From Escherichia coli (GTDB taxonomy: Bacteria; Pseudomonadota; Gammaproteobacteria; Enterobacterales; Enterobacteriaceae): DNA of 64,000 nt. Location: NCBI RefSeq assembly GCF_044324785.1, contig NZ_CP172127.1, one strand, 5' to 3'. The notes beneath the pieces were generated by a model, which saw only the letters and a program-made list of their open reading frames with translations, searched no databases and was not told the origin of the DNA. A program made the translations under genes and the position numbers. Within the stretch, counting starts at the first letter, position 1; the number at the start of each line of letters is the position of its first letter. Shown here in pieces: positions 11,949-15,881 of the stretch.

Positions 11949-12215
11949 TTACATATCATCAGCTGTGTATCGCAACACGATTTCCAGTGTTTTTCTAATC
12001 ACATCAGCTTTAAGAATATCATTTGTTGTTTCCAGGGAGTGTATCAGACTTAAGATAATATTTTTATTATTAACATTATCGCCTGAAAGCATTAAATTGG
12101 TCACAGCCTGCCCTAACACAGCTGACTCTTCTTCTAACAAATTACCTGAACTACGAAAGTAACTTGATAACGCTTTATCAGTTATTGCATTATGAATAGT
12201 AGTATCTTCAAGCAT
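11949..12215 (-). CDS. ariR: Biofilm/acid-resistance connector AriR (YmgB), 88 aa
   Basis: 88 aa; third gene of the ycgZ operon. Confidence 0.8.
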
Positions 12216-12243
12216 GGTAACCTCTCATCTTACTTATGAAATT

Positions 12244-12516
12244 TTAATGTATTCTGTTTATTTTCTTACCATTGAACATACTTTTATTGTCAGCTATCGC
12301 TGTTCTTCTGTTTGGCCCTCCTGTATCACTGTTGCTAAAATCACGAATTATGCTGTCAATTAAATCTCGTCGGAAAGCATTTTCCTCAGCCGATTTCATT
12401 ACGAGTAATTGCTTAATAAGAGTCTGCAACGAAAAATTTATCTTCATGCGCAGTATATGGAGCACCGCCTGGCCAGTAATTTCATATTTTATACTTTCAT
12501 TATCAGATGTCTTCAT
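12244..12516 (-). CDS. ymgA: YmgA, 90 aa
   Basis: 90 aa; second gene of the ycgZ operon. Confidence 0.8.
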   Translation of the reverse strand: MKTSDNESIKYEITGQAVLHILRMKINFSLQTLIKQLLVMKSAEENAFRRDLIDSIIRDFSNSDTGGPNRRTAIADNKSMFNGKKINRIH

Positions 12517-12558
12517 AACGACTTCATAGCTAACCTGTTAAATACTCAGGCTGTTGCA

Positions 12559-12795
12559 TTATTCAAAAAGCAACCCAATTAGTGCATTATAATGTTTCTG
12601 TTCCTCTTCCCCTGTCGCTTGTTCCAGTCGGCAAAGAAGTTTGGCACAAAGCGACTTTCGACTCAGATTACGTCCATCTTTCAAAATCTCAGTCACAATT
12701 TCCCCGAGAGTTTCCTGCTGAGTAGGCAAGTTAGCTTTTGCAAAGTAACGAGTGATTGCTCCCGCAGAATCTGAAGTCACTGAATTTTGATGCAT
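12559..12795 (-). CDS. ycgZ: YcgZ, 78 aa
   Basis: 78 aa; divergent from bluF. Confidence 0.8.
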   Translation of the reverse strand: MHQNSVTSDSAGAITRYFAKANLPTQQETLGEIVTEILKDGRNLSRKSLCAKLLCRLEQATGEEEQKHYNALIGLLFE

Positions 12796-12850: not shown

Positions 12851-12870
12851 TTGTACGAAATATGTGTACA
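12851..12870. promoter_or_regulatory. TGTAC-containing inverted half-sites in the ycgZ-bluF intergenic region, candidate BluR operator
   Basis: ttgtacgaaatatgtgtaca; resembles the TGTACA half-sites of the MlrA/BluR family. Confidence 0.4.
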
Positions 12871-13108: not shown

Positions 13109-14320
13109 ATGCTTACCACCCTTATTTATCGTAGCCATATACGTGACGACGAACCTGTCAAAAAAATCGAAGAAATGGTTTCGATAGCAAATCGCAGGAA
13201 CATGCAGTCTGATGTAACAGGGATCTTACTGTTTAATGGTTCTCATTTTTTCCAGCTTCTGGAAGGTCCGGAAGAACAGGTTCAACTGATATTTCGGGCT
13301 ATATGTCAGGATCCACGGCACTATAATATTGTTGAACTGTTGTGCGATTACGCGCCTGCTCGCCGTTTTGGCAAAGCAGGAATGGAATTATTTGATTTAC
13401 GCCTGCACGAGCGAGATGACGTTTTACAGGCCGTATTCGACAAGGGTACATCAAAATTTCAGCTAACTTATGATGACAGAGCGCTACAATTTTTTCGTAC
13501 TTTTGTCCTTGCAACCGAACAATCAACCTATTTCGAGATCCCTGCTGAAGACTCCTGGCTTTTTATCGCTGACGGATCTGATAAAGAACTTGATTCCTGC
13601 ACCCTTTCACCAAATATAAACGACCACTTTGCCTTTCATCCTATTGTCGATCCCTTATCGCGGCGGATAATCGCTTTTGAAGCCATTGTGCAAAAAAATG
13701 AAGACAGCCCGTCAGCTATAGCGGTTGGGCAGCGTAAAGAAGGGGAAATCTACACAGCGGATCTCAAAAGTAAGGCGCTTGCATTCGCGATGGCACACAC
13801 ACTTGACCTCGGTGACAAAATGATTTCAATCAATCTATTACCTATGACCCTGGTTAACGAGCCTGATGCAGTCTCTTTTTTACTTGATGAAATAAAGGCC
13901 AATGGCCTGGTGCCGGAACAAATCATCGTTGAATTTACCGAAAGTGAAGTCATATCTCGGTTTGATGAGTTTGCCGAAGCGGTTAAATCGTTAAAGGCTG
14001 CCGGTATCAGTGTAGCAATTGATCATTTTGGCGCAGGTTTTGCCGGTTTGTTACTCCTGTCACGCTTCCAGCCTGACAGAATTAAAATCAGTCAGGAATT
14101 GATTACCAACGTTCATAAAAGCGGGCCACGGCAGGCAATTATTCAGGCGATCATAAAATGCTGTACATCACTTGAAATTCAAGTCTCTGCTATGGGTGTG
14201 ACAACACCAGAAGAGTGGATGTGGCTTGAATCTGCAGGAATTGAGATGTTTCAGGGAGATCTGTTTGCGAAAGCTAAATTGAATGGTATCCCTTCAGTTG
14301 CGTGGCCGGAGAAAAAATAA
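13109..14320 (+). CDS. bluF: Blue-light sensing BLUF/EAL protein BluF (YcgF), 403 aa
   Basis: Track ORF extended to 13031; ATG at 13109 gives MLTTLIYRSHIRDDEPV..., BLUF domain then degenerate EAL domain. Confidence 0.9.
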   Translation: MLTTLIYRSHIRDDEPVKKIEEMVSIANRRNMQSDVTGILLFNGSHFFQLLEGPEEQVQLIFRAICQDPRHYNIVELLCDYAPARRFGKAGMELFDLRLHERDDVLQAVFDKGTSKFQLTYDDRALQFFRTFVLATEQSTYFEIPAEDSWLFIADGSDKELDSCTLSPNINDHFAFHPIVDPLSRRIIAFEAIVQKNEDSPSAIAVGQRKEGEIYTADLKSKALAFAMAHTLDLGDKMISINLLPMTLVNEPDAVSFLLDEIKANGLVPEQIIVEFTESEVISRFDEFAEAVKSLKAAGISVAIDHFGAGFAGLLLLSRFQPDRIKISQELITNVHKSGPRQAIIQAIIKCCTSLEIQVSAMGVTTPEEWMWLESAGIEMFQGDLFAKAKLNGIPSVAWPEKK

Positions 14321-14440
14321 TTTTCAGCACATTATTTCGCATGATTTCTGGAAATCATCGTGAAAATGAATACGTTATGTTTTAATTTAATCCACATTAA
14401 AAATAATGTTTCATCCAATTTAGCTGAAATCTTATTTATA

Positions 14441-14491
14441 CTTTGTACAATTTTAGCGTATATTGTACAAAGTATTATTGGGTCGTGTACA
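14441..14491. promoter_or_regulatory. Three TGTACA palindromes upstream of bluR, candidate MerR-family (BluR) operator
   Basis: ctTTGTACAAttttagcgtatatTGTACAAAgtattattgggtcgTGTACAgg; the first two copies form a perfect 10-bp inverted repeat. Confidence 0.5.
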
Positions 14492-14524
14492 GGCGACGGA
14501 GATTTATGACCGCAAGGAGGAATT

Positions 14525-15256
14525 GTGGCTTATTACAGCATTGGTGATGTTGCTGAACGTTGCGGGATTAATCCTGTCACTCTCCGGGCCTGGCAACGCC
14601 GCTACGGTTTGTTAAAACCACAGCGCAGTGAAGGCGGACACCGACTCTTTGATGAAGAAGACATACAACGCATCGAAGAGATCAAGCGTTGGATAAGTAA
14701 TGGCGTCCCTGTAGGCAAAGTTAAAGCATTACTGGAAACCACCAGCCAGGATACGGAAGATGACTGGAGCCGCCTGCAAGAAGAGATGATGTCAATTCTT
14801 CGTATGGCTAATCCTGCCAAACTACGCGCGAGAATTATTTCACTGGGTCGAGAGTACCCGGTAGATCAATTGATTAATCATGTTTACCTTCCTGTTCGTC
14901 AGCGTCTCGTGCTTGATCACAACACCTCCCGCATTATGAGCAGTATGTTTGACGGCGCATTAATTGAATACGCAGCAGCCTCACTTTTCGAAATGCGCCG
15001 TAAGCCCGGTAAAGAAGCCATTCTGATGGCGTGGAATGTTGAAGAGAGAGCACGATTGTGGCTGGAAGCATGGCGTTTATCATTGTCAGGATGGCACATT
15101 TCTGTTCTTGCTGATCCCATTGAATCGCCGCGCCCGGAACTGTTCCCAACGCAAACATTGATTGTCTGGACAGGCATGGCACCAACGAGAAGGCAAAACG
15201 AACTTTTACAACACTGGGGTGAGCAAGGTTATAAAGTCATCTTTCATGCCCCCTAA
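14525..15256 (+). CDS. bluR: MerR-family repressor BluR (YcgE), 243 aa
   Basis: N-terminal MerR HTH ([27 protein letters not shown]). Confidence 0.9.
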
Positions 15257-15476
15257 TTTTACCTTTATCCCGCCCCTTAGACAGAATCTTATAATCTGAA
15301 CCCACAACAGCGTTTGTACCGGAGCTGGTCCGTTGCAAAATGCTCACCGGGAGAATTCAGGTAATCCCCCTTTCACACTTTGTACATATCACAGCCAAAG
15401 GACAGACCAGATTGAAGTGGTAAAACCGATCGTGCACACTACGCAGTCTCACAACTAACAAGAGGTTATTATCCTG

Positions 15477-15881
15477 ATGGATCAGGTTGTTGTTTTTCAA
15501 AAGATGTTTGAGCAAGTGAGAAAAGAGCAAAACTTCTCCTGGTTTTATTCAGAATTAAAACATCACCGTATTGCACATTACATTTATTACCTGGCTACGG
15601 ATAACATCAGAATTATTACTCACGATGACACGGTTTTGTTATTAAGAGGAACCAGGAACCTGTTAAAAGTTAGTACGACCAAGAACCCTGCTAAAATAAA
15701 AGAGGCCGCATTGCTTCATATTTGCGGAAAATCAACATTTCGGGAATACTGTTCAACACTGGCAGGCGCGGGCGTTTTCCGGTGGGTTACTGATGTTAAT
15801 CATAACAAACGCAGTTACTACGCCATTGATAATACGCTTTTATATATTGAAGATGTAGAAAACAATAAACCATTAATCTAG
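15477..15881 (+). CDS. ycgX: Uncharacterised protein YcgX, 134 aa
   Basis: 134 aa; position between bluR and iraM. Confidence 0.75.
   Translation: MDQVVVFQKMFEQVRKEQNFSWFYSELKHHRIAHYIYYLATDNIRIITHDDTVLLLRGTRNLLKVSTTKNPAKIKEAALLHICGKSTFREYCSTLAGAGVFRWVTDVNHNKRSYYAIDNTLLYIEDVENNKPLI

Follow-up and report, generated by a model that had tools for sequence, protein, structure and literature searches.

The bluF-bluR locus

The window, by which we mean the whole 64,000-nucleotide stretch of Escherichia coli DNA that was analysed, carries bluF and bluR on one strand, the ycgZ group of genes on the other and, in the spacer between bluF and bluR, a long palindrome built on TGTACA hexamers. The features on which the argument turns are the following:

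11949-12795, minus strand: ariR, ymgA and ycgZ (list of open reading frames)
12852-12870, minus strand: known BluR operator in the ycgZ promoter, TGTACAcatatttcGTACA, matching the footprinted and mutated motif (PMC3509220)
13109-14320, plus strand: bluF (ycgF), encoding the BLUF-EAL anti-repressor of BluR, 5' of the candidate operator (open reading frame and annotation)
14438-14475, strandless: candidate BluR-family operator, a 38-bp palindrome ATACTTTGTACAAT-N10-ATTGTACAAAGTAT, that is, TGTACA-N14-TGTACA
14444-14449, strandless: distal half-site TGTACA (exact match; TGTACA or TATACA across genera)
14464-14469, strandless: proximal half-site TGTACA, the most conserved element (exact match; information content near-maximal, including the preceding T)
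14486-14491, strandless: third TGTACA, outside the conserved operator (exact match)
14525-15256, plus strand: bluR (ycgE), encoding a MerR/MlrA-family repressor, the putatively controlled gene (GTG start; open reading frame, with which RefSeq agrees)
15477-15881: ycgX, next after bluR (list of open reading frames)

BluF-BluR is, to our knowledge, the only characterised pathway linking blue light to transcription in E. coli, and its output is the control of Rcs, curli, colanic acid and OmpF. The bluF start at 13109 (MLTTLIY...) is that of the 1212-bp coding sequence annotated in K-12, counted back from 14320, and the K-12 annotation is concordant with both gene calls. BluR has the domains MerR_1, MlrA_helical and MlrA_C (Pfam). 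A 441-bp query from the blu locus is 100% identical to strain N3, and bluF/bluR are annotated in about 4975 of 5426 complete genomes. BluF acts as the anti-repressor of BluR, and the two genes are reported not to form an operon (PMC3509220). The spacer between them, home of the palindrome, is 204 bp long and has a G+C content of 31%.

A long palindrome directly upstream of bluR

A preliminary description of this DNA had pointed to three TGTACA copies immediately upstream of bluR, the first two of which were said to form a perfect 10-bp inverted repeat. All three are present and do lie directly upstream of the gene, starting 81, 61 and 39 nt 5' of the bluR GTG at 14525; the third had been placed correctly at 14486-14491, while the positions given for the first two were one nucleotide too high (exactly, 14444-14449 and 14464-14469). 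The inverted repeat is real and in fact longer, with perfect 14-nt arms (ATACTTTGTACAAT at 14438-14451 and ATTGTACAAAGTAT at 14462-14475) on either side of 10 nt. The TGTACA copies at 14444 and 14464, set within these 14-nt arms, make up the dyad of two half-sites that characterises operators of the BluR/MlrA family.

TGTACA shows no global enrichment over the whole window (12 copies found, 12.15 expected). Dinucleotide shuffling of the whole window brought three copies into a 48-bp stretch in 2 of 2000 runs, and when the AT-rich 204-bp spacer itself was shuffled 5000 times, three copies were never obtained, two copies were obtained four times and a perfect arm of at least 14 nt once. The hexamer cluster and the long inverted repeat are far beyond chance. 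A scan of the window with a relaxed two-hexamer pattern matched the known ycgZ site and the bluR site and no others, a result that was left unused as evidence because a shuffled 64-kb window is expected to hold 0.71 matches; the pattern is not rare, 69 of 400 shuffles having two matches or more.

Six of the 12 TGTACA copies in the window fall within 2.5 kb of the blu locus (12865, 14162, 14444, 14464, 14486 and 15381). The copy at 14162 is inside bluF, and that at 15381 (CTTTGTACAT, 96 nt upstream of ycgX) is an orphan, lacking a second hexamer 13 or 19-20 bp away. Within the bluR palindrome of E. coli there is also an internal TGTACA-N7-CGTATA, at 14444-14462.

Position relative to the bluR promoter

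Primer extension has put the 5' end of the bluR transcript 54 nt before the start codon, at a sigma-70 promoter; the promoter of ycgZ is sigma-S dependent and that of bluR sigma-70 dependent (PMC3509220). With the start codon at 14525, this distance therefore puts the bluR +1 at 14471, from which the promoter elements can be assigned:

14435-14440, plus strand: predicted bluR -35, TTTATA (promoter scan), overlapping the outer end of the left arm
14459-14464, plus strand: predicted bluR -10, TATATT (consensus scan), ending 6 nt before 14471
14471, plus strand: bluR transcription start, deduced from the distance published in the text (PMC3509220)

All three assignments derive from the quoted distance and not from the figure of that paper, and should be read as predictions. 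The consensus scan calls TTTATA-18-TATATT, with an 18-bp spacer. Relative to the deduced +1, which falls inside the right arm, the palindrome would span about -33 to +5; its half-sites would occupy roughly -27 to -22 and -7 to -2, and its dyad would be centred at about -15. Given this start, the palindrome lies over the promoter, where an operator of the BluR/MlrA family would be expected.

The geometry is different in most other genera, in which the predicted promoter takes the proximal half-site as its -35 and the dyad centre lies near -41, a position that is also compatible with activation and to that extent counts against repression. The third TGTACA of E. coli comes exactly 17 nt after TTGTAC, at the site of a -10-like hexamer, TAnnGT, that is conserved in other genera. 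The E. coli bluR promoter appears to have shifted upstream, so that the spacer of the operator now supplies the -10 TATATT.

On the minus strand, the third and second hexamers form an antisense TGTACA-18-TACAAT (14462-14491), directed toward bluF, that is promoter-like by consensus alone.

Variation within E. coli

Of 4971 E. coli records, 3846 have the 62-mer 14434-14495 unchanged; for the 42-mer around the palindrome (14436-14477) the number is at least 4594. When five variants were aligned, both arms were invariant in the four intact strains, the changes being confined to the 10-nt spacer or the third hexamer, which reads TATACA in O157 LSU61 and TGTAGA in PMV-1, Seattle 1946 and 22AR0010. 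About 1100 of the 4971 records are without the exact 28-mer across the third hexamer, and these probably differ at that hexamer. It is missing in nearly all other genera as well (Superficieibacter and Pluralibacter have one, at other offsets), and a direct reading of the sequence found no partner for it 13 or 19-20 bp downstream. It may be an auxiliary half-site or an accidental one. The cluster of three noticed at the outset therefore stands as far as the presence of the hexamers is concerned, but the conserved element consists of two of the three.

In E. coli 2018-11-1BCC (NZ_AP027902.1), IS1A replaces bluF and the left arm, and the right arm and the third hexamer remain.

Conservation across genera

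Alignment of 18 BluR homologues led to the retrieval of 80 loci from species-representative genomes, 68 of which are BluR-like (54-84% identical) and 12 of which carry more distant relatives (49-51% identical). A site was counted when it showed no more than one mismatch among its 12 core bases, a spacing of N7 or N10-15 and a location 40-130 nt 5' of the start codon. So defined, a TGTACA pair is found at 65 of the 68 BluR-like loci, 50-90 nt 5' of the regulator's start, and, by the same definition, upstream of none of the 12 more distant relatives, which are mostly of the MlrA type. A further site lies in the ycgZ-bluF spacer of 34 loci, and the rest of the 443 kb holds only 2 matches. Conservation is thus linked to the regulator (65/68 against 0/12), and because the pair is absent 5' of the genes of the MlrA-type relatives, it is a feature of the BluR lineage. 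Two of these twelve relatives were scored with the NCBIfam MlrA equivalog model (cutoff 417 bits), which L068 passes (473) and L079, from Tatumella, fails (246); also below the cutoff are E. coli BluR, at 268, and the Erwiniaceae proteins, at 294-311.

Across the 125 nt upstream of the genes, one genus after another shows the hexamers near -80 and -60 (Citrobacter, Enterobacter, Klebsiella, Kluyvera, Buttiauxella, Leclercia, Cedecea, Pantoea, Erwinia, Mixta), in surroundings that have diverged. Judged by these alignments, the paired TGTACA palindrome is conserved across dozens of enterobacterial genera. Its spacing is N13 in 41 loci and N7 in 10, with the others between N10 and N15 (E. coli has N14), and the comparison yields a family-wide operator consensus that is also the dominant form (41 loci), namely TTGTACA, 13 A-rich nt, TTGTACA. 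Enterobacter and Lelliottia have TATACA-N7-TGTACA. Information content is near maximal on both hexamers and on the T before the proximal one, moderate in the central A tract and about zero in the flanks. Pantoea and Erwinia keep the site although bluF and ycgZ are both absent, and the constant partner of the site is therefore the regulator's own promoter.

Two of the three exceptions are Pseudescherichia vulneris and Escherichia sp. ESNIH1 (L010 and L014), which have no bluR-proximal box and keep the boxes of the ycgZ-bluF spacer. Their bluF-bluR gap is only about 65 bp, so bluR may be transcribed together with bluF, an arrangement that points to a bluF-bluR operon controlled by the operator in the ycgZ-bluF spacer.

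Two further arrangements were seen in the Erwiniaceae and their neighbours. In several species of Erwinia and its relatives, the boxed BluR-like gene is followed, in the same orientation, by genes for a SnoaL-like protein, a short-chain dehydrogenase and a flavin amine oxidase (positions 2501-5656 of L039; also L036, L046, L053, L065 and L067), with bluF and ycgZ absent nearby, and this gene order, together with the TGTACA-N13-TGTACA of Erwinia, resembles light-inducible LitR regulons. A second palindrome, approximately ATCTCATATATGAGAT, occurs in Erwiniaceae about 35 nt upstream of the operator (L013, L016, L019, L026, L027, L030, L032 and others). It sits between the BluR-like gene and divergent genes for an XRE-type HTH protein and a GNAT acetyltransferase, and may be the operator of the XRE-type regulator.

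The same architecture at ycgZ promoters

The BluR footprint at the E. coli ycgZ promoter covers TGTAC...GTACA and GTACA...GTACA, and point mutations in these GTACA motifs abolish BluR binding and derepress ycgZ-lacZ (PMC3509220). The bluR motif matches the recognition sequence so defined by footprint, point mutations and lacZ fusions (PMC3509220), and the ycgZ operator is the only match to the family two-hexamer pattern in the window besides the bluR site. In other genera, the ycgZ promoters read TGTACA-N7-TGTACA-N13-TGTATA(AC)TT on the ycgZ strand; more than 20 loci have TGTACA-N13-TGTATA between ycgZ and bluF, and the three-hexamer sites (L007, L010, L028, L055 and others) lie about 1550-1840 nt upstream of the bluR-like start, their third hexamer overlapping a -10-like TATAAC or TATACC. 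By this comparison, the E. coli ycgZ site (TGTACA-N7-cGTACA-N10-TGTTAC) is a derived form of the three-hexamer operator, so that the footprinted pair corresponds to the conserved N7 pair and N13 is also used at ycgZ. The footprinted N7 arrangement recurs at the ycgZ promoters of other genera and at the bluR promoters of Enterobacter. Since ycgZ is an established BluR target, the simplest reading is that one protein binds the ycgZ and bluR sites.

A candidate BluR operator over the bluR core promoter

The feature is real and conserved and, on comparative grounds, very probably a functional operator. The reading that we favour, to which we give a probability of roughly 0.7, is that the palindrome at 14438-14475 is a BluR operator over bluR's own core promoter, through which BluR would exert a negative autoregulation relieved by BluF. 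The preliminary description had proposed regulation by BluR or by a paralogue. Of these, bluR autoregulation draws strong support from conservation at 65 of 68 loci and from the ycgZ architecture, as far as sequences can tell, and binding by the paralogue MlrA is less likely.

BluR has been described as a repressor only. Bound to both TGTACA half-sites, between and over the -35 and the -10, it would exclude RNA polymerase and so repress its own gene. Blue light or cold would activate BluF and take BluR off the DNA, bluR would be derepressed together with ycgZ-ymgA-ariR-ymgC, and the extra BluR made would restore repression and keep BluR low. The rationale for such feedback is that elevated BluR is reportedly toxic and that BluF acts stoichiometrically. 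Spacing counts against this reading, since the half-sites are separated by N14 at bluR (20 bp start to start) versus N7 (13 bp) at the footprinted ycgZ site and N12 at csgD. The coexistence of half-site registers of 13 bp and 19 bp hints at higher-order binding.

No report of BluR autoregulation was found in the searchable literature, which excluded Tschowri et al. 2009 (Genes Dev), nor did a search of it turn up binding or reporter data for the site; PMC3509220 does not mention autoregulation. A CRISPR-interference promoter screen (PPTP-seq) is uninformative on this point because its bluR guide RNA dropped out. The work of Tschowri et al. in 2009 is said to have used ycgE-lacZ fusions and may already have included a ycgE mutant.

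The bluR box would add a new site to those of a known regulator, and autoregulation is an ordinary kind of feedback. If the site is autoregulatory, (i) it creates a feedback loop that sets the BluR:BluF stoichiometry, (ii) it explains the low level of a toxic repressor and (iii) it predicts adaptation after induction by light or cold. On a bolder and less probable reading, a MerR lineage related to LitR and CarH and responsive to light or stress would have had the TGTACA-N13/14-TGTACA box of bluR as its ancestral, primary operator; the box would predate the bluF-ycgZ module and would be bound by a higher-order, CarH-like BluR oligomer in the 13-bp and 19-bp registers that ycgZ promoters display. 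Were this true, BluF-BluR would be a self-resetting photoresponse circuit, and the published view of BluR as simply a recent MlrA duplicate would have to be revised.

Other readings of the palindrome

The alternative that survives best, although it is unlikely, has MlrA as the main binder, which would couple bluR to the sigma-S, c-di-GMP and curli pathway by activation or repression. The MlrA box at csgD, AAAGTTGTACA(12N)TGCACAATTTT, has GTACA in common with the BluR motif, and the csgD promoter is weakly bound by BluR (PMC3509220). We confirmed this box in the K-12 sequence, which bears out the earlier statement that MlrA recognises TGTACA half-sites at csgD (the box itself being given in PMC3509220). 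Written as AAGTTGTACA-N12-TGCACAATTT, it resembles the ACTTTGTACA-N14-TGTACAAAGT of bluR, whose long spacing is nearer to that of the MlrA box (18 bp) than to that of the footprinted BluR site (13 bp). The helix-turn-helix motifs of the two proteins differ at only four residues, and BluR shows cross-binding at the csgD promoter. However, the site tracks BluR-like genes, those of Erwiniaceae included, and is found at 0 of 12 loci of distant relatives, one of which is a confirmed MlrA equivalog (473 bits against a cutoff of 417). The architecture is moreover shared with ycgZ promoters, which BluR controls, and MlrA has no reported target here, the only reported genomic-SELEX peak near bluR being that of SrsR, which recognises a different motif.

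SrsR (YgfI) gives its genomic-SELEX peak between bluR and ycgF and is a reported activator of bluR (PMC9181523). It was rejected as the binder of the palindrome, its box gCAGGTTTTGC, of another motif, lying at 14033-14043 inside bluF, 400 nt upstream.

It is improbable that the hexamers are mere promoter elements (a -35-like TTGTACA and a -10-like TACAAT) or an AT-rich coincidence, with H-NS and RNA polymerase explaining their conservation. Consensus scans do return promoter-like hexamers that use the TGTACA copies, the proximal TTGTAC of other genera does lie 17 nt upstream of TAnnGT, and both the sigma-70 RNA polymerase holoenzyme and H-NS bind the bluF-bluR spacer in genomic SELEX. Yet nothing in a promoter calls for a palindromic hexamer to be repeated identically at a constant distance of 19 bp; the distal hexamer, which has no promoter role in other genera, is conserved equally with the proximal one; and at ycgZ promoters the pair stands in another register with respect to the -10. 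Binding of BluR to the motif is, in addition, experimentally established elsewhere (PMC3509220).

Least probable of all, by a little, is that the repeat acts as RNA, as a hairpin by which the bluF transcript would be terminated or stabilised and bluF separated from bluR: the 14-bp stem is predicted to be stable (-17.6 kcal/mol, z = -3.8; none of 200 shuffles gave an equally good fold), the two genes reportedly do not form an operon (PMC3509220) and the E. coli arms are longer than a protein site needs, but G-C pairs (2 of 14), a proper U tract (the tail being UAUUGGGU), covariation and a matching Rfam family are all lacking, which is why this was rejected as the main role. An intrinsic terminator at the palindrome was likewise discarded on its G-C pairs and tail, the terminator scan having made no call. 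The symmetry in other genera extends over merely 6-10 nt around a 13-nt A-rich loop, and it is the TGTACA sequence that is conserved, not the pairing. The motif is also present in places that do not follow the end of a gene (ycgZ promoters and, in Erwiniaceae, the neighbourhood of a divergent gene), and the deduced bluR start, inside the right arm, would split the hairpin.

Comparison with known operators

The closest counterpart of the putative bluR operator is the BluR operator at ycgZ (Tschowri et al. 2012), 1.6 kb away in the same locus, where BluR acts as a repressor. Both have a (T)GTACA core and two half-sites overlapping the promoter, and in other genera the N13 and N7 architectures are common to the ycgZ and bluR sites. 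They differ in E. coli, where ycgZ has TGTACA-N7-cGTACA (13 bp) and bluR TGTACA-N14-TGTACA (20 bp) with perfect 14-nt arms, and BluR binding is proven at the former and predicted at the latter.

The MlrA box at csgD (Ogasawara et al. 2010) is likewise long and palindromic, its half-sites are of the TGTACA type and its flanks rich in T/A, and its left arm, AAGTTGTACA, coincides with the Erwiniaceae consensus. In contrast to the bluR site, it lies far upstream of the promoter, mediates activation and has N12 instead of N13/N14. It is bound by MlrA, whose own gene is without such a site.

The canonical operators of the MerR family (MerR, CueR, SoxR, ZntR) are compact dyads centred in a promoter spacer of 19-20 bp, at which a distortion of the DNA switches repression to activation. 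The bluR site was rejected as an operator of this activator type, its predicted spacer being 18 bp, its half-sites 20 bp apart and its dyad centre at about -15. In the BluR family, unlike in these systems, the half-sites are 19-20 bp apart, and BluR is described as a repressor only.

A mechanistic parallel comes from the class II LitR proteins of Pseudomonas (PplR1, PmlR2), which recognise a consensus T(G/A)TACA-N12-TGTA(C/T)A overlapping the -35 or the leader and which, like BluR, are repressors released by a blue-light photoreceptor acting as anti-repressor (in their case a LOV protein). The PplR1 gene is itself among the light-inducible genes. The G/A degeneracy of the LitR consensus is also seen in BluR sites (TATACA), and the closest solved structures for the BluR DNA-binding domain are Thermus LitR (3whp) and CarH (5c8d), CarH being also the second-best NCBIfam match. 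The two systems differ in their C-terminal domains (MlrA_helical and MlrA_C in BluR, a B12-type four-helix bundle in LitR), in their photoreceptors (BLUF-EAL for BluR, a short LOV protein for class II LitR) and, by 1-2 bp, in their spacing. The relation between LitR and BluR is one of mechanistic resemblance and homology of the DNA-binding domain, not of membership, and the comparative data connect regulators of the BluR type with the TGTACA-N12-TGTACA operators that LitR proteins use in Pseudomonas.
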